Positions 14,050-62,487 of a stretch of DNA of 64,000 nt are shown piece after piece. The notes under the pieces were generated by a model. That model made no database searches, had not been told where the DNA came from, and worked only from the letters and a program-made list of their open reading frames with translations. A program made the position numbers and the translations under genes. Source of the stretch: a virus (lineage: Duplodnaviria > Caudoviricetes); IMG/VR virus record IMGVR_UViG_3300011116_001007. One strand, given 5' to 3'. The stretch's first letter is position 1. Every line of letters starts with the position of its first letter.

Positions 14050-14691
14050 TTATTTAGCCTGTATTGGCACAGTCTTGCGAACAATTCCCGGCAGAACGAG
14101 ATTCAACATCAGCGCATCATTGATGTCATGATGATCGATAAAATTCCAGTCATTGGTGTAAAAATGCTTGTAATGAAACATCCGCCCGTCATCGCCAATC
14201 AATCGAGACTGCAAGCCCGGCGTGATCCTAAAATAGTCCGGGCGGTTGGCAAAAAATTGTATAAATCTATCGCGCTCAATGTCGTTGAAATATTTGCCTC
14301 TGAGATAAGTTCTGTATTGATGTTGTGTTTTTTCAAGCACAACCACATCCTTTGCTCGATCAACCACACATTGATTGTACTTGGCTGTTCTTGTTATGTA
14401 GGACAAGGCCGCCAAGTCTTTTAACAGTGTTAAATTATTGGTGTAAACATATACCCAACTGCCGTAGATGATAGATTTATGTGCATCTTTGTCGGCTGCC
14501 AACAGCATGGCCACTTCGCCCACATCAGAATACTCGGGCATACGCTCCACAAAGTCTTTTATATCTTTTGTATTGGAATATTTGAATAATCTACGCCATC
14601 TGCCAACTTCTTCCAATCTAAAATCTATGGCATACTCGTACTGATCATAGTACAAACTGCCTCGGGACACGTATTTGAAGTCAATCATCAA
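14050..14691 (-). CDS. Hypothetical protein
   Basis: 213-aa ORF coupled to clpA by overlap. Confidence 0.65.
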   Translation of the reverse strand: MMIDFKYVSRGSLYYDQYEYAIDFRLEEVGRWRRLFKYSNTKDIKDFVERMPEYSDVGEVAMLLAADKDAHKSIIYGSWVYVYTNNLTLLKDLAALSYITRTAKYNQCVVDRAKDVVVLEKTQHQYRTYLRGKYFNDIERDRFIQFFANRPDYFRITPGLQSRLIGDDGRMFHYKHFYTNDWNFIDHHDINDALMLNLVLPGIVRKTVPIQAK

Positions 14692-16949
14692 GTGCCTGCT
14701 GCTGGGAATCTAATGATGCCATCTACATCTACCACAGGAATCACATGTGCTTGAGTTTCAAAATGCACTTGATCATCCACTAGTGTTGCAGTGATATCAC
14801 AATCGGTCAGTCGATCAAACAGGATCCGCTTGCTCAATGGCACACGGATCAACTGATCAATCTTGCGGCTTAGGGGTCTTGCACCCATTTTGTTATCATA
14901 GCCTTTTTCAGCCAGGTAATCAATCACGGGCTCTGTCAACACCAAGCGTATGCGTTTGCTTTCCAAACTGGTCTTGAGCTCATCCACAAATTTAAGCACA
15001 ATCTTTTTAATGGCCAAAGTATCCAGTTTCACAAACTTACACACTTGATCAATACGATTACGCATTTCGGGCTTGAAGAACTCTTTCATGGCACGGTCTT
15101 CTTCTCCGGTCTTTTCTTGTGAGCCAAAGCCGATGGCATTGCTTTCGCTGTCCCTGGAACCCAGATTTGAAGTCATGATAATGATGCAGTTCTTCACATT
15201 GGCCTTTTTGCCATTGCTGCTGGTCAACACACCTTCGTCCAGCATCTGCAGCAAGATGTTGCTGACATCTGGATGTGCCTTTTCAATTTCGTCAAACAAG
15301 ATCACAGAAAAGGGATTCTTGCTGATGTCGGCGATCAACTTGCCGCCGCCTATGTTGCCGTCCTCAAATCCCACATAGCCTGGAGGTGCACCAATCAAGC
15401 CTGACACACTGTGACGTTCTTGATACTCACTCATGTCGTATTTCAACAATGGCATGTCCAGGTGCTGGCTCAACAGTCTGGCCAATTCAGTTTTGCCTGT
15501 GCCAGTGGGCCCCGTAAACAAGAAACTGGCCATGGGCCGTCGTTCGTTGCCAATACCTGAGAAGTTGATGTACACACGATCCAACACAGCATCCACCGCA
15601 GCGTCTTGCCCGTAGAGATGTTGTTTGATATTGCTTTCAAGATCCACAATCTTGGCTGATCGCTCATTCTGCAATCGATCTGTGGGCACACCTGTCACAC
15701 GGGCCACTTGTGCTTCAATCAATTCTTTAGTGATGGTCGCGGTGCCTGCATCTCGAACACGTTCTCGGGCACAGGCTGCATCCAACAGATCAATACACTT
15801 GTCAGGATTCTTTCGATCGTGAATGTATCGATTGCCCAGTTCCACAGCAGTGGTCATTGCCGCTGTGTCGATCATGACATTGTGGAATGCTTCCAGTCTG
15901 GGTGAGAGCCCGATCAGGATCTTTTCAGTGGTCGCAGTGTCCGGTTCGTCAATCGACAACCTGTAGAAACGGCGCATGAGAGCACGATCCTTTTCGAAGC
16001 TCTCGTAAAATTCTTCCCAGGTGGTACTGGCCACAACCTTGAGTGTGCCACGTGTGATGGCTGGTTTCAGCATGTTGGCAAAGTCTAGACTGCTTCCCGA
16101 ACTGCCTGCACCTGCACCTTTCATGGTGTGTGCTTCGTCCACAAACAAGATGCAGTTCTTTTTGGCTTCCAAGGCTGCCAGTACCACCTTGAGTTTTTCT
16201 TCAAACTCGCCGCGGTATTTGCTTCCGGCCAGCAAACTACCAATTTCCAAACTCCATACTTCGTAGCCTTTGAGGAACTCAGGCACACGCCCTGCATTGA
16301 TTTCCTGTGCTAGTCCTTCCACAATGCAGGTCTTGCCCACACCAGGATCGCCTACCATGAGCACGTTGGCTTTGAAACGACGTGCCAGCACAGCAATCAT
16401 TTCTTCCAGTTCAGTTGCACGACCAATCAGCGGTTCCAATTGATTGGCAGCGGCCTGTGCAGTGAGACTGGTACAGTATTCGGTCAGTACTTCGTCTGCT
16501 TGATTGGATGTCATTTTGCTGTCTACCTGTGTGTGATTTTTCTGATAGAATTCCACAAACTCAGACTTCTTCATCCCGTACTTGAGCAAAAAGTAGTGTG
16601 CATGGCTGTTGGTTTCGGCCATGATGCTGAGATACACATCCAACAGGTTCATGGCTCTGCGGCCAGTGAACATGACCTGCACGTTGGCTCGATTGAACAC
16701 ACGTTCCAGGCTTTGTGTTTTTTTGGGCTGTACATCACCTGTCTTGACCAGGTTCATCAGACTGTTCAAGTATGCATCCAGCTCTTGATCCAGCATGTCT
16801 ATTTCCACGCCAAACTGTTCAACCAGTCTACGGAAGTGTCCTTGGCGCAGCATGGCCAATAACAAGTGTTCGGTCATCACATATTCGTGACTTTTTTCTT
16901 TAGCTATTTTTACAGCGTTGTCAACAATGCTTTCGATTTCGTGTGCCAT
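14688..16949 (-). CDS. clpA: ATP-dependent Clp protease ATP-binding subunit ClpA
   Basis: Clp N domain; two AAA modules GDPGVGKT and GPTGTGKT; KYRGEFEE, DEIEKAHPDV, GARPL. Confidence 0.95.
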   Translation of the reverse strand: MAHEIESIVDNAVKIAKEKSHEYVMTEHLLLAMLRQGHFRRLVEQFGVEIDMLDQELDAYLNSLMNLVKTGDVQPKKTQSLERVFNRANVQVMFTGRRAMNLLDVYLSIMAETNSHAHYFLLKYGMKKSEFVEFYQKNHTQVDSKMTSNQADEVLTEYCTSLTAQAAANQLEPLIGRATELEEMIAVLARRFKANVLMVGDPGVGKTCIVEGLAQEINAGRVPEFLKGYEVWSLEIGSLLAGSKYRGEFEEKLKVVLAALEAKKNCILFVDEAHTMKGAGAGSSGSSLDFANMLKPAITRGTLKVVASTTWEEFYESFEKDRALMRRFYRLSIDEPDTATTEKILIGLSPRLEAFHNVMIDTAAMTTAVELGNRYIHDRKNPDKCIDLLDAACARERVRDAGTATITKELIEAQVARVTGVPTDRLQNERSAKIVDLESNIKQHLYGQDAAVDAVLDRVYINFSGIGNERRPMASFLFTGPTGTGKTELARLLSQHLDMPLLKYDMSEYQERHSVSGLIGAPPGYVGFEDGNIGGGKLIADISKNPFSVILFDEIEKAHPDVSNILLQMLDEGVLTSSNGKKANVKNCIIIMTSNLGSRDSESNAIGFGSQEKTGEEDRAMKEFFKPEMRNRIDQVCKFVKLDTLAIKKIVLKFVDELKTSLESKRIRLVLTEPVIDYLAEKGYDNKMGARPLSRKIDQLIRVPLSKRILFDRLTDCDITATLVDDQVHFETQAHVIPVVDVDGIIRFPAAGT

Positions 16950-17021: not shown

Positions 17022-17807
17022 TTATTGGTGTTGTTGGATGGCATCTAACAATGCATCGGGAATGGCATCAGGAATTCGAGCCTGCATGCGTACCAAAATG
17101 TCGCCAGGCGGTCCATCTTTGCTGACCAAGCCCTGACCTTTCAATCGCATGATCGAACCTGGTTGTGTGCGCGGTGGCACAGTCATGCTCAGTGTACTGC
17201 CAGTGGGTGTGTGTATTTCAACATCTGAGCCCAGGATCAGTTTCCAAATGTCCACTTTGCGTTCGCAATGCAGGTTGAATCCATCTCTATGCCAAACTGG
17301 ATCAGGATTGATTCTAAACTGCACAATCAGATCCATACCGCCAGGTGCTATGCCACCGTATTGCACATTGTCGCCGTCTTGAATGGATCGAGGAATGTCA
17401 ATCTGCACAGTGGTAGTGCCCACAGCAGTGCTCACGCTCACAGTTTTTGCACCACCGCGTATGGCATCGGCTAGCGATATCCACAAGTTCATGGTGACCT
17501 GACGGCGCTGTTGCTGTTGTTGGGCATGCATCTGCTGGCCAAACATTTGGCTGAATATGTTGTTGAGATCAAACGGATTGCCCGGAAATCCACCACCAAA
17601 ATGCTGTGTGTGTTGCTGCGGATTGTTGTAGGCTGCTCGCTTTTGATCGTCGCTGAGTGTTTCGTAAGCAGCTTGGATTTGTTGGAATTTGGCAGTGTCA
17701 CCACCTTTGTCAGGATGATGCTGACTGGCCAACCGACGATAGGCCTTTTTTATGTCATCAGCAGATGCTGTGCGCGGTACACCCAGGGTGTCATAATAAT
17801 CACTCAT
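17022..17807 (-). CDS. dnaJ: DnaJ/CbpA-type co-chaperone (no zinc finger)
   Basis: DYYDTLGV...HHPDKGG J domain with HPD; DnaJ C-terminal domain. Confidence 0.9.
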
Positions 17808-46138: not shown

Positions 46139-47605
46139 ATGCCAATAATATCTAGACCGGTAGGGTATACAAATTCATTACAAACACTCACGGTATATCC
46201 GTTGATTCCTGACGCTCAACTTACTGCACATCTCTGGGGCGGTGGTGGTGGTGGCGGCGGGAACGATTCTGGCCCCGGAGGCGCAGGAGGTGGTGGCGGG
46301 TTTTCGATTGCCACAATTGCTTGCAACACTGCTGATGTTATTACACTGGCAGTGGGCAGCGGCGGTGGTGGCGGGCTCAGCGGCGGCGGAGTAAGTGGAG
46401 GATCAGGAGGATCTAGCTATGTTGGGTATAGCGTATTCAACACAAGACAATTGGCTGGAACAAATGGATTGATTGCAGTGAGTTTACCTTACGCCTGGAG
46501 CAATTTCATGAACGCCTATGCTGTATGGAATGCCAATGGTGCTTACACGCTTGATGTCTCTACCACTATTTCTGTGCCATTCACTGGTGTATTTGTTTTG
46601 CAGACAGCATTTGATGACGATGGCACAGTATACATAGATGGGATTGCTGTGGCATCTTCCAGCGGAAGTTATAACGGTTCAAGAATTAACAATATTACAA
46701 TAACCAGCGGTTCTCATACTTTACGTATTGTAGGTTATAACTCCGGTGGAGGACCCGCTGGAGTGGCTGTATCGATCAACAGTGGGGCTAGTTTTTCAGG
46801 TGCTCCGGGCGGCAATTCAGGATCACGAGGTGCTAGCGGTAGTGGTGGTGGTGGCGGCGGGGCAACTGTTTTATTACAAAATGGGCTATTGCAGGGCGTG
46901 GCTGCCGGCGGCGGTGGCGGCGGCGGGGCAGGTAATCCTAGCCCAGGTGGCAGCAGTCCCGGACCCAACGGCCAAACTACCACAGGGTTCAATGGTGAAT
47001 CAGGAGCAGGTCATCCAGGTGACGGCGGCGCTGGCGGAGGTGGTGGCGGAGGATACAATGGCAGCACTGGCGGAGGTGGCAATGGTGGAGCATATGGCGG
47101 GTGGCCGGGTGCTAGCGATACTGGTGGACAAGCAGGAAACCCTGGCGCCAGCTGGAGTTTTGCCTATCCAAATGGATTTAATCCCAGTGGTCGAACACCC
47201 GGCGGACAGTCAGGAATCTCAGTACCAGCTGGAGTTGGACAAGGTGGGCGATCAAACGGCGAACGTGGGGGCAATGGATATGCAGTGATATACATGAATG
47301 TTCCTGGGGTGTTTGTAAATCAAGCTGGTACCTATTATGCTACCAAGGAAGTTTATGTGAATGATCAAGGCACTTGGAAAATCACAAATGCAATTTATAT
47401 CAAACAAAATGGGGCCTGGACCCAGGTGTCCGGCCAACAAACTACTAATTTTGAAACTATCAGCGGAGATTGGGGTATGGTTCCGCGGTCCAGTCCATAC
47501 GTTTACTCTCCACCACCGCAACCAAGTGGAGGTGGTGGACCAGGCAGGGGAGAAGGCAGCAGCGGCGTCGCTGGTGGCGGCTTTGGCGGTGGTGGCGGCG
47601 ACTAA
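46139..47605 (+). CDS. Glycine-rich tail-associated protein with an inserted PA14-like domain
   Basis: LWGGGGGGG and AAGGGGGGGAG glycine-rich motifs; [13 protein letters not shown] insert. Confidence 0.7.
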
Positions 47606-47922
47606 ACTGAAAAACTACTGCCGCAGCCGCAGGTGCTGACTGCATTGGGATTTTTTATCACAAAGCTGGCACCCATGGCATCTTCTTTGTAATCAATGTC
47701 TGATTCTTGTAGATATTGCATGCTCATGGCATCTACTACCACTCGCACTTCTTCGTAGTTGAAATCAAAATCATCTTCGTTTTGAATTTCATCAAACGTG
47801 AATCCATAACTGAATCCTGAACAACCGCCGCCTTGCACAAACACACGCAGCATGAGCGCAGGGTTGGCTTCTTCTGCGATCAGCTCACGCAGTTTGCTCA
47901 CAGCAGCAGGTTTGAGATTCAT
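47602..47922 (-). CDS. erpA: A-type Fe-S carrier ErpA/IscA
   Basis: [20 protein letters not shown]...[14 protein letters not shown]; TAATG coupling to the SOD gene. Confidence 0.9.
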
Positions 47923-48464
47923 TATAGTCTTTCGTTGCACACATCCCAATCAATGATCTTCCAGATATTGTTGAGATATGCTTCTTTGTCGCTTTGATAA
48001 TCCAGGGCCCAGGCATGTTCCCACCAGTCTACTAGCACACAGATGTCGGTGCGTACGGCATGATTGGCGATGGTCTTGATTGCTCCGCTGGTGCTGAGAT
48101 ACACCCATCCAGAGCCTTGTATTTTCATAGCAGTTTCTTTGAATGCTATTTTGAAATCTTCGTAGGTTTTAAAATGTTCTTCTATGAGTGCGAGTACTGC
48201 ACCACGTGGTCGATTGGCACCTTTGGGAGCCCTAAGCTGAGGGAAAAACTTATTGTGTAAAAAACTGCCAGCACGATTAAAATCTGCATTGCCTTCTCCT
48301 GCATTGTATCGCTTGGCATAGCCCTTGGCGAGATGTTCAAAATGGTAATCAATTGTGGCAGCACTCATCACCGGTGCCAGGTCCTTGGGACCATAAGGTA
48401 GTGGAGTAGTTTCTAGTTTGGCCGGTCTGGTGCTGGCTTCCAGTAAGTCTATGTGTTCACGCAT
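47922..48464 (-). CDS. Compact Fe/Mn superoxide dismutase
   Basis: LPY..LAP.MS..TIDYH, FLHNKFF, GSGWVYL, DWWEHAW (four metal ligands present). Confidence 0.85.
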
Positions 48465-48472
48465 ACAGGTAT

Positions 48473-48691
48473 TTATTTTCTTCTAACAATACGCCCTCTA
48501 GTGAGATCGTATGGTGTGAATTCCACTTCTACCCGATCTCCCAGCAGCACTTTGATATTGTTGGTACGCATTCGCCCACTGAGATGTCCCAGCACTGTAT
48601 GCTCAACATTGTCTATTTTGACGCGGAACATCGCAGCAGGTAAAATGTCTTCAACTGTTCCCTCCATTTTGAGAGTTTCTTCTTTGGCCAT
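48473..48691 (-). CDS. infA: Translation initiation factor IF-1
   Basis: MAKEE.LKMEGTV...[38 protein letters not shown]. Confidence 0.95.
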
Positions 48692-48697
48692 ATGCAA

Positions 48698-49147
48698 TTA
48701 CTTAGTGAAGTTGATCTCTGTTGTGATCTTCTTCAATCGATCATAGCGGAAACTGCGCCAGGCAGCCTGATCTAAATCGTAAACTCGCTGGGTCACAGGA
48801 TCAGGTTCTTTGCGCGGTTTTTTATTTTCGGCCAGTGTGTCTAGTCCATCTGGGTTAGCAGTAGAGGATTTGAAAATTGTGCCTACAGGTGCTGGCGGAA
48901 TTCTGCTGCTGTCCAGAGTGCATCGCATGTCACGTGTGGTGCCATCTGATTTCACAAACTGCACAGTGACTTCGCTGGTGGTCAACAGGCCCTTGACCCA
49001 AGCCCTTATTTCCGCTTGGCCTGCGGTGTCAGCTTCTTGATACTGCGTTCCAGGTGCATTTTTCAGCAAGCGAAACACTTCTGCTTTTTCCCAATCCATC
49101 AAATCCATAAGTTCTCCTCTAAAAGTTAATAAACGTTTTTTAATCAT
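48698..49147 (-). CDS. Sm-like/SH3 beta-barrel (WYL-2-like) protein
   Basis: VQFVKSDGTTRDMRCTL...VYDLDQAAWRSFRYD; start MIKKRL coupled to the array. Confidence 0.65.
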   Translation of the reverse strand: MIKKRLLTFRGELMDLMDWEKAEVFRLLKNAPGTQYQEADTAGQAEIRAWVKGLLTTSEVTVQFVKSDGTTRDMRCTLDSSRIPPAPVGTIFKSSTANPDGLDTLAENKKPRKEPDPVTQRVYDLDQAAWRSFRYDRLKKITTEINFTK

Positions 49148-49500
49148 GTCCATCTCAATGCTGCTATTGTAGCATACTTGGCATACTTTTGACTAATCTT
49201 TATGGTTAGACGATTGTCAGTAGCATCACGATCAGCCATGCCCCAATCCCAATCCCATTTTTGACGACCGACATGTTCTTCTAACCATGGGCGATAGTGA
49301 TCGTTTGGGTCACTGCTATCGACAGATGTTTTACTACCGTCTGGCATCCAATCTATATCTACCCACCCCCTGGGCCATGCTACATTGATTACAACTCCGG
49401 GCATAAATCGCCACCAGAGATGTTCTTTGATATTCAATCCGCAGGGCATCCAATAGTTTTGTCTAAAGAAGAAAAGACCTTTAATCTCACTCTTGCTCAT
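49144..49500 (-). CDS. LRW-family array member 9
   Basis: MSKSEIK...WLEEHVG...ATIAALRWT. Confidence 0.75.
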   Translation of the reverse strand: MSKSEIKGLFFFRQNYWMPCGLNIKEHLWWRFMPGVVINVAWPRGWVDIDWMPDGSKTSVDSSDPNDHYRPWLEEHVGRQKWDWDWGMADRDATDNRLTIKISQKYAKYATIAALRWT

Positions 49501-49742
49501 GTCCACCTCAATATAAACCATGTTGCCAACTTAGGATCTTTAACTGTGATAGTGGGCACATATTTTGGTCCCAAGTCACGAGGGTCAAACGCTTCGTGTG
49601 GCTGTGGATAAACACGCTCACGCTTGTAGAACCAGGCATAATCGTAATTGTCAACAAGGCCAGTCATATTGCCTTTGCCCACATGTTTGTTTAACCATTC
49701 GGTACACCCTTCGGGCACACCTTGACGAAATTCTACTCTCAT
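49497..49742 (-). CDS. LRW-family array member 8
   Basis: MRVEF...WLNKHVG...KDPKLATWFILRWT. Confidence 0.75.
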   Translation of the reverse strand: MRVEFRQGVPEGCTEWLNKHVGKGNMTGLVDNYDYAWFYKRERVYPQPHEAFDPRDLGPKYVPTITVKDPKLATWFILRWT

Positions 49743-49990
49743 GTCCACCTCAATAAAAAGAATGTAGCATCACTACCTTCTTTGAAAGCAATCTTGCTGT
49801 CCCAACAATGACATTCAATTTTAGTTTCTTTTAACCAATCTTTCACATTACTAGACACACTAGGAATGTACCATGGATCTGGTATTTTAACAATAGTCCA
49901 ACCCATAGCATTGTATAGTATTTCGGTATCAATACTATCAGCTAAATCTTTAGTTAGTTTATTAAGATATTTGTGTTCTATATCCATCAT
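49739..49990 (-). CDS. LRW-family array member 7
   Basis: MMDIEH...FKEGSDATFFLLRWT. Confidence 0.75.
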   Translation of the reverse strand: MMDIEHKYLNKLTKDLADSIDTEILYNAMGWTIVKIPDPWYIPSVSSNVKDWLKETKIECHCWDSKIAFKEGSDATFFLLRWT

Positions 49991-50202
49991 AGCCACCTCA
50001 ACAAGAACCATGCAGCATGTTTTTCATCGCGGAACTCGACCACACCTTCGCCAAGATACCTCCACCCATCCTCAGACTGGCCACCGAATTGTTCAAAGCA
50101 CCAATCTATACAGGGACTCCATCCTTTATAATTTGAAGCGATTTTGGGATCATTGGGTACCGGCACACTGACTATATGCCATTCTGGCTGCGGGTATTTC
50201 AT
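49987..50202 (-). CDS. LRW-family array member 6
   Basis: MKYPQ...WCFEQFG...FRDEKHAAWFLLRWL. Confidence 0.75.
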   Translation of the reverse strand: MKYPQPEWHIVSVPVPNDPKIASNYKGWSPCIDWCFEQFGGQSEDGWRYLGEGVVEFRDEKHAAWFLLRWL

Positions 50203-50399
50203 GACCACCTCAACAGAAACCAATCGTGGTTCTTTCTAACTTGAAACACATAGCCTGTGCTGCCTGAACTCAATAGAAAAGGATTGCAATCATTTTTATA
50301 CATCCAACTAGTAATTTCGTGCCAATCTTCTGTTTTCATACAACGGTAAACTGGATGATTGTTCCAACCTGGATATGATGTTTTCTCTACTTTTGTCAT
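50199..50399 (-). CDS. LRW-family array member 5
   Basis: MTKVEK...HDWFLLRWS. Confidence 0.75.
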   Translation of the reverse strand: MTKVEKTSYPGWNNHPVYRCMKTEDWHEITSWMYKNDCNPFLLSSGSTGYVFQVRKNHDWFLLRWS

Positions 50400-50638
50400 G
50401 ACCATCTCAATGTAAAATGTGTGGCATCTTTTGCGTCCGAGAAATAGAATGTACTACCGGCCCACTCATTTTTTTGCAAACAACAATCACGCCTAGTATG
50501 TTCACTAACCCACCTAACCATTTCCGCAACTTGATCACACCAATCAGTCCAATCCATTCCCGGGCGTACTGTAAGATGTACCTTGTGATAATTCTTGTCA
50601 ATATCACGTTTTTCTTTTCTACGCTGTTTGCTATTCAT
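50396..50638 (-). CDS. LRW-family array member 4
   Basis: MNSKQRR...FSDAKDATHFTLRWS. Confidence 0.75.
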   Translation of the reverse strand: MNSKQRRKEKRDIDKNYHKVHLTVRPGMDWTDWCDQVAEMVRWVSEHTRRDCCLQKNEWAGSTFYFSDAKDATHFTLRWS

Positions 50639-50829
50639 GCGCCCCACTTCAGCAAGAACAACATCAGGTGCTTTTGCTTTTTAAAGTAAAAATAGCCGTT
50701 GGCTCTTTGGTGTTCACCAAATTTAAAAGTCTTAGTACACCAGCGATCTGCCTCAAGCCACTTATTGCCTTGGACAATTTTGTAGGGCATCTTGACTCGT
50801 TTGATACCGTAGTCAACAATCAGGGTCAT
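50635..50829 (-). CDS. LRW-family array member 3
   Basis: MTLIVDY...WCTKTF...FKKQKHLMLFLLKWGA. Confidence 0.75.
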   Translation of the reverse strand: MTLIVDYGIKRVKMPYKIVQGNKWLEADRWCTKTFKFGEHQRANGYFYFKKQKHLMLFLLKWGA

Positions 50830-51056
50830 GACCACCTCAACAAAAACAATGTAACATACTTTTCTTTATACAAGTATAACCAGCCACCGAGATAATCCCA
50901 ATGACGGTCATGCGTATGTGTAATAAATCCATTGGGTCCAAAAGTATCCCAGCACCATTCATGCACTTGTTTTATATTACTGCCCGGAGTAGTAAGGCTA
51001 AAATGCACATCCCATCTATCTAACTCGGGACGATGTATAATCTTGGGCAAAGTCAT
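50826..51056 (-). CDS. LRW-family array member 2
   Basis: MTLPKI...WCWDTFG...TLFLLRWS. Confidence 0.75.
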   Translation of the reverse strand: MTLPKIIHRPELDRWDVHFSLTTPGSNIKQVHEWCWDTFGPNGFITHTHDRHWDYLGGWLYLYKEKYVTLFLLRWS

Positions 51057-51349
51057 GACCACTTCAACAAAAACAAAGTGCGGTCCCGTTCATCACGGAA
51101 CCAATACTTGTAATTACTGCCAACCCAACGAGCGTGTTCTACTGACCAATCAGACTCTCCCATTGTATCTATTACCCACTGGTCCATGCCCCACCACTCT
51201 GCCTCAGTGTAGTTTGATGGTCGAATCCAATAGGGCCATTTAGGTTGATTTTCAGCATAGCCAGTTTCAAGGCGTTTCACGTTGATTTCATCTATCCATT
51301 GTGTTGCCATTTTGGTTATCTGTTGTGGAGTCAATATAGCGTTACTCAT
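51053..51349 (-). CDS. LRW-family array member 1
   Basis: MSNAIL...WVIDTMG...FRDERDRTLFLLKWS. Confidence 0.75.
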   Translation of the reverse strand: MSNAILTPQQITKMATQWIDEINVKRLETGYAENQPKWPYWIRPSNYTEAEWWGMDQWVIDTMGESDWSVEHARWVGSNYKYWFRDERDRTLFLLKWS

Positions 51350-51738
51350 CGCCGCATCTTGGATATGTCAATTGCTTCTTCGTCGCTGAACACAGGCACA
51401 GCATTGCTCTTGTGCATGGTAGCAATGCCTTTGACCTTGGTGCCTGTATACACTTTGGCAGGTGCCAACGCTGCCACACCACCGCCGGTGCCAAGACTGG
51501 GAATGTGAGCAGTACCTGCACGATCTGTGGCACCAGTCAAATTGTAAACCAAGGGTTCTGCTGCTAGAGCACGACGACGCTTCTTTTCTTCTGCAGCCAC
51601 ACCTTGACGTTTCAGCAGTTGTTTCCAGTCAGCTTCGAGTTCACGAGCCTTGCGAGCTTCAGCAGCATTACGGTATTTGAATTTACCCTTCTTCTTGCCA
51701 TTGAGGCTCAGCGCAGGGCCGCACATGTGCATGGTCAT
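51346..51738 (-). CDS. Basic hypothetical protein (T4-like phage type)
   Basis: C-terminal VYTGTKVKGIATMHKSNAVPVF. Confidence 0.7.
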   Translation of the reverse strand: MTMHMCGPALSLNGKKKGKFKYRNAAEARKARELEADWKQLLKRQGVAAEEKKRRRALAAEPLVYNLTGATDRAGTAHIPSLGTGGGVAALAPAKVYTGTKVKGIATMHKSNAVPVFSDEEAIDISKMRR

Positions 51739-51764
51739 AAAGATCTCCTGGTAGTCATGTGCTT

Positions 51765-51793
51765 ATTATAGCACAGCTCAAATTACCGGTCAA
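51765..51793 (-). promoter_or_regulatory. sigma70-type early promoter driving the array operon
   Basis: TTGACC-17-TATAAT. Confidence 0.85.
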
Positions 51794-51796
51794 CCG

Positions 51797-52099
51797 TTAT
51801 TTGAACAGGATCAGCGCCATCAAAACGGCTTGCACAATAAATCCCGAGCCCACAGTGATGATATTCAACATGTCTTTGAGCACCACCGCTCGCATGAACA
51901 ACAAGACCAGTCCAGCCCACAAGAACAATATCACGTCCAAACTAGGTGTTCGATCACTGAGTCCTGTCATCAGAGCCAGCAAAGTGGGCACAGTAGCAGC
52001 ATGTAACACTATGGCTGATAACCATCCTAAAGTTTCTGCACTCAATCTGGGCAAGTGTTCACCCAACCAGTCAATAATAGAACGAGATGCAAATATCAT
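51797..52099 (-). CDS. Small multi-pass membrane protein
   Basis: Three hydrophobic segments; ATGA overlap with the hydrolase gene. Confidence 0.7.
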   Translation of the reverse strand: MIFASRSIIDWLGEHLPRLSAETLGWLSAIVLHAATVPTLLALMTGLSDRTPSLDVILFLWAGLVLLFMRAVVLKDMLNIITVGSGFIVQAVLMALILFK

Positions 52100-52668
52100 G
52101 TTTTTTCTCCGTAAAAGATATGATGTCCAATTTTCTCTAATTTGGGTTTGTTCCAACCCGGATTCACGTAGTCAGCGTGATAGTACAGTGCGTTTTTCAG
52201 TCCCGGCAAGCGGAATCCTTCCAACAACACTTTTTTGGCCACTTCCTCACTTTCCCTCCACAGGGGTCGGTGTATGGCTTTGCCAGGATGTCCTGATTCA
52301 CAGAACCAGCTGAATTGGCACACTACTTTTTCGTAGAATACGTTTTTCTGATATACCACTGCACATACAGAATTGGCAAAACGTCCAGAGTCCACACGGT
52401 TCAGAGTGACCTGCGCCACACCCACCTTGCCTTCAAACGGTTCGTTGGCAGCTTCCCAATAGATGTTTCTTGTGAGGCATTCCAGTTCTCGGGTGCGTTG
52501 TGCTGCACTGATATAAGTTGCGGATAGACCATCTGGTTGTTCACGCAGGGCATTGAGTCGATTATTGGTCACCACGTACACCACATAGACCACTGCAATC
52601 AGTCCTAGGACTTTGAGTAGATATGAACTGTAGCGTTGTGCCAAAAGGGATATTTGATTTGCTTTCAT
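52096..52668 (-). CDS. Cell wall hydrolase, SleB/Hydrolase_2 family, N-terminal TM anchor
   Basis: CLTRNIYWEA..EP..GKVGVAQVTLNRV, CQFSW, ALYYHADYVNPGW, IGHHIFY. Confidence 0.9.
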   Translation of the reverse strand: MKANQISLLAQRYSSYLLKVLGLIAVVYVVYVVTNNRLNALREQPDGLSATYISAAQRTRELECLTRNIYWEAANEPFEGKVGVAQVTLNRVDSGRFANSVCAVVYQKNVFYEKVVCQFSWFCESGHPGKAIHRPLWRESEEVAKKVLLEGFRLPGLKNALYYHADYVNPGWNKPKLEKIGHHIFYGEKT

Positions 52669-52748
52669 GGTAGTGTTACTTAATGAAATGGGCAAAATCA
52701 CCCGAAAGATCGGGCCAAAACAGTATGGTTTCGGCCGATCCACTGTGT

Positions 52749-52777
52749 ATTATAACACAGACTGGTCGAATTTGCAA
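52749..52777 (-). promoter_or_regulatory. sigma70-like promoter
   Basis: TTGCAA-17-TATAAT. Confidence 0.65.
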
Positions 52778-53529
52778 ACCGGTATTGGCAACATCTTGTG
52801 CAAATTTGTTGCGCGAATCTCACGGTAGCGACGAAGATTTTTTTTCTCTTGAGGAGTGATATGGGGGAGAAAAAAACCGGTGTCTTGAAGCATGGCCTGT
52901 TCCAGTTCAGGATAGGTCATGCCCAGTTGATCCTCATCGGTGCGACCATCCTCCCACAATCCATCTGTGGGCGGTGCATCGATGATTGACTGCAACAGTC
53001 CCAGTTCACGACCCATGGCCCACACCTCTGTTTTCATGCAGTCGCCAATGGGGCTGATGTCCACACCACCATCGCCGTATTTGGTAAAGAAGCCCACACC
53101 AAAGTCTTCCACTCGATTGCCTGTGCCCACCACAATACCCCGCTGGCTTTGTGCAATCTGATACAGGGTCATCATGCGTAGTCTAGCACGACTGTTGGCA
53201 TAGGCCAGTTCATTGTACACACCGTCCTCTGTGGCTTTTTCAAACTGTTTGAAGGCCGGGGTGAGATCAATTGTTTTGTGTAGCACGTTGTTGGGGAATC
53301 GTTCCGCCAGCCAGGCGCCGTGAGCAACACTGAGACTATGAGTTTTTTTACTTTGGCGTATGGGCATGCTGACTGCATGTACATCCAGTCCAGTCATTGC
53401 ACACAAGGTACTGACCACAGCAGAATCAATGCCACCTGATACTCCCACTACCAACGTGTTAATTTTGGCACTCCGGGCATAACTTTTGATCCACTTCACA
53501 ATAGTGGTAACACGTTGTTTAGGTGTCAT
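52750..53529 (-). CDS. nadE: NH3-dependent NAD+ synthetase
   Basis: VGVSGGIDSAV, ANSRARLRM, GTGNRVE, FFTKYGDGGVD, APPTDGLW, DEDQLG. Confidence 0.93.
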   Translation of the reverse strand: MTPKQRVTTIVKWIKSYARSAKINTLVVGVSGGIDSAVVSTLCAMTGLDVHAVSMPIRQSKKTHSLSVAHGAWLAERFPNNVLHKTIDLTPAFKQFEKATEDGVYNELAYANSRARLRMMTLYQIAQSQRGIVVGTGNRVEDFGVGFFTKYGDGGVDISPIGDCMKTEVWAMGRELGLLQSIIDAPPTDGLWEDGRTDEDQLGMTYPELEQAMLQDTGFFLPHITPQEKKNLRRYREIRATNLHKMLPIPVCKFDQSVL

Positions 53530-54092
53530 ACTTTTACTTTTGGCATTTTTTTCAATGTTTCCCACATCAGGGCTTTCTCTTTGCATTTCTTCTCCAGTTT
53601 CTTATATCGTTCGCCCAGTCGGCGTAGGTCATCCCAATCTTTTTCTAACTCGGCGTTGGGCGTGAGTATGTTCAATCGCTCTTCTACCCGTTCCATCCAC
53701 TCAGTCATGCTCTTGCCATTGATCTTGATGTCTGCATCTTTACCTTCTACAGAAATTATAGTACTGGGTTTGTTACCGTAAACGCCGCCAATTGTGTATG
53801 TGCCGCCGCTGCCAGCTACACCAATGGTGTTAATAGTATTGTTACTATAATAAGCACCAGCGCCTGAGCCGCCTGCTAGAGAAACTACTGGATTTGTATC
53901 CCATACTGCACCAGTTGCTGAGCTGGTTCCACCGCTAATGGTAACATTAGCATCGCCCCAATCGATTGAGCTTATTTGCACAGGATTGTCCACAGCCTGT
54001 TTGGCCAAATCACGCATTTTTTCCAGCTGGATGTTTAGCTTTTCAGATAGCTCTTCCGTCGAAGGGTCTTTTAATGAAACAGCCACGGTCAT
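53526..54092 (-). CDS. Hypothetical protein
   Basis: Gly/Ser-rich middle; coiled-coil C-terminus. Confidence 0.65.
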   Translation of the reverse strand: MTVAVSLKDPSTEELSEKLNIQLEKMRDLAKQAVDNPVQISSIDWGDANVTISGGTSSATGAVWDTNPVVSLAGGSGAGAYYSNNTINTIGVAGSGGTYTIGGVYGNKPSTIISVEGKDADIKINGKSMTEWMERVEERLNILTPNAELEKDWDDLRRLGERYKKLEKKCKEKALMWETLKKMPKVKV

Positions 54093-60793: not shown

Positions 60794-60991
60794 TCAACTC
60801 CATTTCAATTGATAAAACGTTGCTAGTGCAGGATCTCGAAAATGAAATATCACAGTTCGATGACGGTTAATGTCATCGGGCGGCACGTATGTCCATGTGA
60901 AATCATATCCCTGAATCAGTCCCGACTGCTCCAGTTGAGTCTTGAGCTCTAGACCCTGCTGTGGACTCATGTTGAAAGTGATTGAATGCAT
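60794..60991 (-). CDS. Orphan LRW-family member
   Basis: ...FHFRDPALATFYQLKWS stop. Confidence 0.7.
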   Translation of the reverse strand: MHSITFNMSPQQGLELKTQLEQSGLIQGYDFTWTYVPPDDINRHRTVIFHFRDPALATFYQLKWS

Positions 60992-61250: not shown

Positions 61251-62129
61251 TCAAATCTCAATTGTTTTCAGCTGCCAGTTTTGGGCACGAGCTTCGTGGC
61301 CAACATAACCACGTGGGTTACATACCACTCGACAGGTACCAATTGTGTAGTCAAAAACGTCATGCATGTGGCCATGTGTCCACAATACAATTTCAGGATG
61401 GTCCAACATAAATTCAGACAGGTCTGAACCAAATGCACCATTCATCACAAATTGTCCTTGATACTGAGGTGCAATGCTGAGAGGGCTAGGAGCATGATGC
61501 CCTACCACAACAAATCGGCTGCCAGGATTTTTTGCAATCTCGTCACGTACAAATGCCAACATGGTGTTGTGGTCTTCAACTGAATCTTCAGGAGTGAATT
61601 TGCTGGCTCGGGTTTTAAACGTCACTGTGTCTTTGCTGGCATCATAAGGCCAGTCTCCACTGGGCACACGACTTTTGTACGATACCATTCGGTGACTATT
61701 TTCGATGGTGCGGTAATCATTCATGTAGTTACGAATGACCAGCAGGGTCTGCGGGTCATTGCGATTCATGTCAGTCCACAATGTGCCACACAAAAAAGTC
61801 ACGCCATTGATGGTCATGCTTTGCTTTTCCAACACATGCAGATTGGTCAGGTATGATAACTTTTCTTTCAAGCGAGGCACAGTCAATGCGTAGTCGCCCC
61901 GATAGTGCTCGTGATTGCCTGCAATGTATATCACCTGGTCGAATTGTTCTGCACAATGTTCGAAGAAGCTGTGATATCTTTGGCTCTGAGCATGTGGGAT
62001 GCCACGATCCATCAATTCGCAAGCCACACAGATATCGCCGCCCAGGATCAGTACATCAGCATGATCGGTGTTGTTGATTTCAAGTGGTCCAAACTCCAAG
62101 TGGACGTCAGATGCTAATGCGATTTTCAT
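61251..62129 (-). CDS. Calcineurin-like metallophosphoesterase
   Basis: ASDVHLE, LGGDI, AGNHEHY, GHHAPS, WTHGHMH, CNPRGY. Confidence 0.9.
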   Translation of the reverse strand: MKIALASDVHLEFGPLEINNTDHADVLILGGDICVACELMDRGIPHAQSQRYHSFFEHCAEQFDQVIYIAGNHEHYRGDYALTVPRLKEKLSYLTNLHVLEKQSMTINGVTFLCGTLWTDMNRNDPQTLLVIRNYMNDYRTIENSHRMVSYKSRVPSGDWPYDASKDTVTFKTRASKFTPEDSVEDHNTMLAFVRDEIAKNPGSRFVVVGHHAPSPLSIAPQYQGQFVMNGAFGSDLSEFMLDHPEIVLWTHGHMHDVFDYTIGTCRVVCNPRGYVGHEARAQNWQLKTIEI

Positions 62130-62487
62130 TTATTTCTTGGTCAAATTGTTTCTTCAACACAGCCAGTGCAGCAGGATCACCGCGGGCTATAGCTGCGTTT
62201 TTATCGGGATAGCGTTGATTAAAGTTCTTTATAATTTCAACTAGATTTTGCCCGGTACACACAAAGTCTTTTGTAAAGTGATTGTAACATAGAAATTGAT
62301 TGTCAACTGATTCAACCTCTAAAATAATCAGTGTTTCGTTTTCCAACTTCTCCAAAGTTTTCAATGCTTCCGGCGGCAGGCCTTCTAGTTCTTGTAACGC
62401 ACGCCAGGTCTGCCAGGCCTGATAAAAATGTATCAGTGCGGCACCAACCAAAATGCCAAGCACAACAGGAATTAAAAATTCAGTCAT
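62107..62487 (-). CDS. Membrane-anchored hypothetical protein
   Basis: N-terminal TM helix. Confidence 0.65.
   Translation of the reverse strand: MTEFLIPVVLGILVGAALIHFYQAWQTWRALQELEGLPPEALKTLEKLENETLIILEVESVDNQFLCYNHFTKDFVCTGQNLVEIIKNFNQRYPDKNAAIARGDPAALAVLKKQFDQEINENRISI

Follow-up and report, generated by a model that had tools for sequence, protein, structure and literature searches.

How might a bacteriophage shuffle its accessory genes while keeping every one of them expressed? The question is raised by a locus in IMG/VR virus record IMGVR_UViG_3300011116_001007 (Duplodnaviria; Caudoviricetes), from which a stretch of 64,000 nucleotides (hereafter the window) was analyzed. Here, nine small open reading frames (ORFs) follow one another on the minus strand in unbroken series, from 51349 to 49144, with no intergenic DNA between them. 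The analysis described below leads us to think it probable that these ORFs, termed W1 to W9, constitute a tandem array of diverged paralogs belonging to a very large undescribed protein family, that they form a coupled chain, and that the short sequence at which they meet is the recombination point of whole genes.

All nine units end in (F/A)-x-L-(R/K)-W followed by one residue (two in W3), and the TGA of each overlaps the ATG of the next gene to give ATGA. An initial annotation of this DNA had reported the nine ORFs, their lengths, the strings at their ends and an ATGA at all nine junctions; each of these is present in the minus-strand sequence, and the chain is in fact longer, with ten overlaps in succession when the boundaries with a preceding 130-amino-acid (aa) gene and a following WYL_2 gene are included. 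A stop codon overlapping the downstream start, the feature by which termination-reinitiation operons are recognized, is thus repeated ten times in series. The string YTGARRTGGNNATGA occurs eight times in the window, always at an array junction (0.04 expected from shuffled sequences, with none of 100 shuffles reaching eight), while the ninth junction, at 50635, is one codon longer (CTG AAG TGG GGC GCA TGA). A repeat search placed the junction within two direct-repeat families, D1 and D2, whose similarity reaches approximately 32–45 nucleotides (nt), and returned no local inverted repeats at the junctions.

That the array changes by whole units is apparent from 47 IMG/VR loci with a W1 ortholog, in which family members were labelled by iterated profile and then clustered. 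Together they hold 266 units in 54 orthogroups, and their 188 adjacencies comprise 73 distinct adjacent pairs; W1 has 14 different right-hand neighbors, and no ortholog of W2 or W5 was found across the 47 related loci. Six loci share the flanks of the window (p188, NadE, SleB-like hydrolase, 119-aa and 130-aa genes on one side; WYL_2, IF-1, superoxide dismutase (SOD) and IscA on the other) yet carry different unit sets, such as W1-W3-W4, W1-x20-W3-W9-W7, W1-x19-W9-W7-W8 and W1-x22-(one more)-W3-W6-x10. Order also varies, with W9 ahead of W7 in two loci and W6 ahead of W4 in another, and W7 is doubled in tandem in one locus. Unit x4, in a second phage lineage, follows W1, W4, W7, W8 or x13 depending on the locus, and the joint always falls within a shared string of approximately 23 nt.

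The closest relative (L001) allows individual events to be placed. Its flank proteins are 96–100% identical to those of the window and its DNA approximately 90% identical, while its array is W1-W3-W4, three units versus nine, without W2 and W5–W9. Three alignment blocks between the two sequences overlap by 24 and 22 nt, precisely at junction repeats, and the crossovers were placed by inspection within GTGGTCATGAC and ATTGAGATGG-CATGA. An all-against-all scan of the loci extended this to 59 distinct indel contexts, each with its three ends no more than 30 nt from a family stop codon; these share mostly 21–28 nt, and the inserts tend to be one, two, three or more units long. A further 20 or so contexts have one end beyond the 30-nt cut-off (32–37 nt) or lie at a unit without the LRW tail. 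By comparison, indels elsewhere in the same loci share just 3–5 nt. Contigs from two riverine sequencing runs, which at 88% likeness represent relatives and not this strain, have a W1-type tail followed immediately by the start of W4 (50639 to 51089), with 40 and 52 nt on the two sides; this is the only contig joint used, the sides of the others being mostly 21–27 nt, about the length of the repeat, so that they may reflect mapping ambiguity. The closest relative, the six loci with common flanks and the 59 indel contexts all bear out the expectation of the initial annotation that units would be gained, lost and reordered among relatives with breakpoints at the junction.

Units less than 40% identical in protein nevertheless share 20–28 nt of near-identical DNA at the junction. 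No longer stretch of DNA identity exists between units that are otherwise dissimilar, and for that reason the junction is where recombination would be expected to land. Ordinary short-homology recombination between tandem paralogs explains the pattern without a dedicated system, and the pattern is fairly described as an “integrase-free cassette array”. The junction has also been suggested to serve whatever gene follows, and this holds for at least one unrelated gene, as WYL_2 starts from the last junction. Such a case could also be read as the signature of a dedicated cassette system, in which the junction would be a selected, portable wiring module recognized by a specific phage recombination function and allowing capture and expression of any gene, related or not, integron-like in behavior but with neither attC nor integrase. 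Consistent with that idea, four mini-genes of another family (MNERI...GVEE) lie between units W9 and W8 in one relative (L011, 7153–8243), and the junction DNA turns up again in a phage context that is distant: at L048:3032–6779, thirteen small genes, eight of which match the family, are chained, most via 4-nt overlaps and with TTGAGGTGGTCATGA-type junctions present, in an unrelated setting adjoining HSP20, ClpS, heme oxygenase and bilin reductase genes, which suggests that the family also occurs in cyanophage-like genomes. Fusions and tail duplications (see below) likewise point to frequent events at the junction. We nonetheless regard a dedicated system as improbable. No associated recombinase or recognition structure was found, inverted repeats are lacking at the junctions, and the foreign genes in L011 are joined by the junctions of their own family, not by LRW junctions on both sides. 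Moreover, homology of 20–28 nt is sufficient for general phage recombination.

Three observations temper the reading of the junction as the crossover point of whole genes. W1 was the bait by which the 47 loci were collected, so its constant presence is by construction. Relics are also present, namely C-terminal stubs, a remnant of the W4 N-terminus, a fusion of two units and a doubled tail, indicating that imprecise events occur as well. Finally, selection against broken genes would also favor breakpoints at gene ends. Natural fusions are seen in the metagenomic proteins P0121, P0122 and P0190, their forms being a 141-aa protein that contains two full units, a C-terminal tail that is doubled, and a full unit to which a C-terminal stub is fused; all are consistent with slips at the junction.

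The second question is whether the junction is kept as a ribosome-binding site. As first annotated, arginine at the junction is always encoded by AGG or AGA in the window and never by CGN (seven of seven codons), versus 22% AGR elsewhere in the window (AGG 4.6%), and GAGGTGG is present at five of nine junctions, 5 nt before the ATG when counted from GAGG. At these five sites, where complementarity to the 16S 3′ end lies 4–9 nt before the start as in a Shine-Dalgarno (SD) sequence, the calculated duplex energy is −10 to −14 kcal/mol, beyond the first percentile of random 20-mers; the anti-SD used was that of a generic 16S 3′ end, which may not be the host’s. Pairing can extend over nine positions, one of them G-U, in GAGGUGGUC. 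Across the array, anti-SD energies reach −7 to −14 kcal/mol at eight of nine unit-end junctions, with the W9/WYL_2 junction at −4.1, while the value ahead of W1, downstream of a non-family gene, is −1.7; the means are −3.4 for the other 64 genes and −3.9 for random 20-mers. Counted by orthogroup, junction arginine codons are AGG in 21, AGA in 12 and CGN in 7, against a background in the rest of the same genes of 32% AGR with AGA approximately four times as frequent as AGG. In 29 orthogroups, observed junctions averaged −8.3 kcal/mol compared with −4.3 for synonymous recodings (Wilcoxon p 2e-6), although this p-value is overstated since the orthogroups are not independent, owing to shared ancestry and junction exchange. 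Junction codon choice is therefore biased at the nucleotide level toward an SD-like string beyond what the peptide needs.

The last codon is a separate case. The ATGA overlap is used by 204 of 263 family members of the relatives, and the final codon is NNA (TCA, TTA, GAA, GGA, GTA, ACA and others) wherever it is used and not otherwise, from which it follows that the last residue is dictated by the stop/start overlap and not by the protein. Where the overlap is absent, as in L011 and in a solo tenth family member elsewhere in the window, serine is encoded by AGT instead of TCA, and TGG AGT yields GGAG at a good distance from the next start; the solo copy reads AAA TGG AGT TGA, then 2 nt before the next ATG, which places GGAG 7 nt ahead of it. 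Since AGA or AGG followed by TGG places another possible start codon, ATG or GTG, in frame two codons before the ATGA, the exact start of each unit is ambiguous. A reading of GGTGG as a Chi site was considered and dropped, as it does not match the Chi site of E. coli, which need not be that of the host.

An alternative is that the junction is incidental, the product of peptide constraint and shared ancestry, its SD-like string a by-product of Leu-Arg-Trp codons and its apparent role in recombination the result of selection removing broken genes, such that it has no function of its own. Several findings lean this way and weigh against a conserved initiation site. The motif persists without a coupled downstream gene and with the same R/K codon spectrum, the share of AGG being 0.27 in 11 uncoupled tails and 0.29 in 112 coupled ones; W1 orthologs in four loci have CGT at an ATGA overlap; and most genes of this phage, including other ATGA-coupled ones, have little or no SD, for which reason the SD-like string may not be needed for initiation. 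In the window, an SD-like motif precedes only approximately 23% of genes. Toggling between lysine and arginine also favors AGR somewhat, AGR making up 41% of arginine codons in K/R-mixed columns versus 24% in arginine-only columns. However, the junction has approximately 80% AGR, double the share in K/R-mixed columns, and more AGG than AGA where the background ratio is 1:4, so toggling accounts for only part of the AGR excess and for none of the excess of G in third position. The synonymous recodings pair far less well with the anti-SD, units that have diverged below 40% protein identity retain a long stretch of near-identical DNA, and indel blocks overlap by exactly that stretch whereas indels elsewhere share only a few nucleotides. 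On balance, we consider it rather unlikely that the junction is incidental.

What the initial annotation had proposed, that the junction is kept as an SD sequence, thus stands as regards codon bias beyond the peptide and is left in doubt by CGT at ATGA overlaps, by the equal AGG share of uncoupled tails and by coupled genes that have no SD; the contrast in codon bias that it expected between arrayed and solo members did not appear, though only 11 uncoupled tails were compared. Selection for initiation is a plausible cause of the bias, which may be kept by initiation, by homogenization through junction exchange, or by selection for homology.

The nine products are related to one another distantly. 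Pairwise aa identity is 16–37%, and a single family profile matches each of them within the window at E 1e-9 to 1e-17, confirming the paralogy suggested earlier. A word-indexed search returned 753 close metagenomic relatives, all unnamed, and an exhaustive profile search of 1.84 billion representatives returned 3,468 clusters (50% identity) at E ≤0.001; in nearly all of 150 remote matches examined, the profile ends at the last residues of the protein. The C-terminal strand-turn-helix, F-x-F-x-x-E-x-D-x-x-x-F-x-L-(R/K)-W followed by zero to two residues and the stop, is present in all nine units and in the solo copy, and a central helix, W-C-x-E-x-F-G and then R-W, appears in the family consensus and in most of the nine, weakly in W7 and W5. 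Scans of the nine units against Pfam, PHROGs, NCBIfam and PADLOC, and of 39 diverse family members against Pfam, gave scattered sub-threshold matches and no recurring family; a profile search of PDB sequences found nothing below E 0.06, and blastn and tblastn searches of 50,697 GenBank phage records found no family match.

AlphaFold2 models of W1 (predicted local distance difference test score, pLDDT, 89.9; helix, two strands, helix, two strands, helix) and W6 (pLDDT 86.5; strand, helix, two strands, helix) place the common core as a predicted small two-layer alpha/beta sandwich with a three-stranded sheet and two helices, in which L-(R/K)-W, as indicated by conservation and the model, lies buried at the end of the last helix. 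Fold searches with the two models (Foldseek against PDB, BFVD and AFDB clusters, a wide VIA-align search, and ESM Atlas) provided no functional lead, the matches being unnamed viral relatives and generic ferredoxin-like, DCoH, ACT and designed-protein rows with Z ≤5.9, an outcome that does not demonstrate a new fold. A feature search of ESM Atlas returned unnamed viral clusters only. Small size and missing annotation are all that would favor the notion that these ORFs are not genes but chance frames over a DNA repeat, which we find scarcely credible given ratios of nonsynonymous to synonymous substitution (dN/dS) below 1, thousands of homologs with conserved hydrophobic core positions, two confident models and no competing long ORFs on the opposite strand.

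Compared with L001, dN/dS is 0.38 for W1, 0.74 for W4 and 0.18 for W3, whereas five flanking genes have values of 0.04–0.09 and WYL_2, downstream of the array, has 0.20; these figures rest on a single genome pair and short genes. The units evolve faster than their neighbors. Most of the sequence variation lies in the N-terminus and one loop, the core aromatic residues being fixed, and because of this pattern and their rapid evolution the set would fit diversified binding proteins used early in infection. A role of the products in anti-defence or host takeover is a tentative suggestion, which we would judge to be less probable than not.

How such a chain could be expressed is suggested by its upstream region. 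The initial annotation proposed one promoter at 51765, and this agrees with a single sigma-70-like consensus match ahead of the chain (Table 1); in a consensus scan, promoter-like and terminator-like matches within the array were at chance level only. RNA-labelled sequencing runs (shares 0.06–0.14) and uncovered parts were uninformative on expression. In our preferred reading, that of a coupled chain of paralogs with recombining junctions, one early transcript would begin at this host-type promoter, and the stop/start overlaps make it most likely that the genes are translated by termination-reinitiation from unit to unit. The last 15–25 nt of each unit would then have three roles: encoding the buried end of the C-terminal helix, providing both the stop/start overlap and a run rich in purines that is complementary to the 16S 3′ end, and acting as the crossover site at which whole genes are removed, added and reordered without a scar. 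The shuffling itself would be caused by ordinary short-homology recombination and not by a dedicated enzyme.

Table 1. Features of the array and related sites in the 64-kb window (unit lengths are counted from the overlapping ATGs)
Feature	Position	Strand	Remarks
Sigma-70-like promoter, TTGACC-17-TATAAT, TG-extended	51793-51765	-	11/12 consensus matches; best site in 47000-53000
130-aa basic protein, first gene of the operon, non-family	51346..51738	-	stop overlaps W1 ATG (ATGA)
W1, 98 aa, end LLKWS	51053..51349	-	orthologs in 47 IMG/VR loci
W2, 76 aa, end LLRWS	50826..51056	-	family profile match
W3, 64 aa, end LLKWGA, junction +1 codon	50635..50829	-	94% aa identity to L001 copy
W4, 80 aa, end TLRWS	50396..50638	-	family profile match
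W5, 66 aa, end LLRWS	50199..50399	-	family profile match
W6, 71 aa, end LLRWL	49987..50202	-	profile match E 2.5e-17; nearest of the nine to the family consensus
W7, 83 aa, end LLRWT	49739..49990	-	family profile match; in tandem duplicate in relative L014
W8, 81 aa, end ILRWT	49497..49742	-	family profile match
W9, 118 aa, end ALRWT, last unit	49144..49500	-	stop overlaps ATG of unrelated WYL_2 gene
WYL_2 / Sm-like SH3 gene, non-family	48698..49147	-	PF10902 E 9.6e-10; phrog_1086; starts at last junction (ATGA)
Translation initiation factor IF-1 gene, directly downstream of WYL_2, conserved flank	48473..48697	-	PF01176 E 8e-22
Solo tenth family member, 65 aa, end YQLKWS	60794..60991	-	profile E 1e-4 to 7e-6; far from the array
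Nine junction repeats, 15-nt core YTG ARR TGG NNA TGA	span 49144..51067; sites 51053, 50826, 50635, 50396, 50199, 49987, 49739, 49497, 49144	-	pattern count, repeat search; similarity beyond the core reaches about 22-32 nt

The array is carried on a contig of 308,552 bp, and the sequencing runs that contain the stretch are freshwater viral, riverine and lake metagenomes; the source is an uncultured freshwater jumbo phage (~308 kb). Genes for NAD synthase, a SleB-type cell-wall hydrolase, IF-1, Fe-SOD, an IscA-like protein and a ClpB-like ATPase make up the surroundings of the array. Those that resemble host genes (IF-1, Fe-SOD, the IscA-like Fe-S protein, NAD synthase and the ClpB-like double AAA+ ATPase; 47602–48697, 52750–53586 and 14688–16949) form an unusual set. 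The 130-aa protein at the head of the operon has no match in Pfam and is 98% identical to its counterpart in L001. The C-terminal third of its gene (51346–51451, minus strand) is 74.5% identical over 106 nt to hypothetical gene 114 of Delftia phage PhiW-14, the only DNA match of the region among GenBank phages.

Two further upstream motifs were noted in the window. TATAAT ends 6–8 nt before the ATG of four minus-strand genes, with starts at 17807, 54520, 57486 and 62487 (for example genes 17022–17807 and 62107–62487), which suggests that these genes may have leaderless or near-leaderless mRNAs. A TAAATA motif recurs 5–20 nt before many starts, that of the SOD gene among them (11300, 12251, 5664, 6868, 13061, 20127, 43544 and 48464), and in its sequence this putative element resembles a T4-type late promoter.

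Among described systems, the nearest are the promoter-early stem-loop (PeSL) cassettes of T4-type phage hyperplastic regions, in which, by the published description, repeats flank small non-essential ORFs, and recombination between them inserts, deletes and replaces whole genes between close relatives (Arbiol et al., 2010; PMC2839356). The array resembles these cassettes in having short repeats at small genes, in the turnover of whole genes between relatives and in a repeat that also brings expression signals. The PeSL repeat, however, is intergenic and comprises a promoter and a terminator, making each ORF its own transcription unit, whereas the array has no intergenic space and its scans for such elements were at chance, so that PeSL-type promoters and terminators between the ORFs are absent; the repeat here is instead a coding end with a stop/start overlap, the wiring is translational and the shuffled genes are paralogous. 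Integron arrays offer a second comparison, likewise consisting of promoterless units in one orientation behind one upstream promoter (in the present case a consensus match), with variable content and order. Unlike integron cassettes, the units are homologous to each other and exchange by homology and not at a specific site. No attC is present at the 3′ ends of the units, which overlap by 4 nt and have no inverted repeats at their junctions, and no IntI was found in a scan of the array-flanking genes, which carry other domains (the rest of the window lay outside that scan).

In lambdoid phages, conserved gene-boundary sequences reportedly serve as recombination points, as described by Juhala, Hendrix and co-workers and by Clark et al. 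The array shares with these phages mosaic joints that fall at gene boundaries with a short conserved sequence; the lambdoid joints, however, lie between non-homologous genes at scattered sites, whereas the array is a regular tandem chain with one junction at every unit. A further parallel is provided by the paralogous immunity-gene arrays found beside bacterial polymorphic toxin loci, which are presented as tandem sets of small diverged paralogs with birth-and-death turnover and are thought to track varied targets (Zhang, Iyer, Aravind; PMC3113570, PMC3482391). In contrast to the array, those sets, as far as these accounts go, belong to bacteria, are as a rule not chained by translation and come with known partner toxins, and they show no sequence relation to the family described here.

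The array is best classed as a case of modular shuffling in the hyperplastic regions of phages, one in which the shuffled genes belong to a new protein family. A more far-reaching view would hold that the junction is a selected, portable “coding linker” that finishes the fold, ends and restarts translation and serves as the crossover point, by which a large group of uncultured freshwater and cyanophage-like phages would exchange thousands of mini-proteins without an integrase and plug in unrelated genes, as a diversified counter-defence or host-takeover arsenal. In our estimation, that view is rather unlikely.

The locus provides an example, at the level of sequence, of phage accessory genes that are shuffled while staying expressed, with a crossover site that lies inside coding sequence and coincides with a translational restart, unlike the intergenic promoter-terminator cassettes of T4-type phages. 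The mixed evidence for SD function bears on the initiation of internal genes in phages where SD sequences are mostly missing from the remaining genes. That a family of thousands of clusters at 50% identity should be missing from Pfam, PHROGs and GenBank phage records is itself of consequence. A confident but uninformative fold combined with elevated dN/dS is what would be expected of genes engaged in a phage-host arms race, and these features make the members of the family ready candidates for functional screens.

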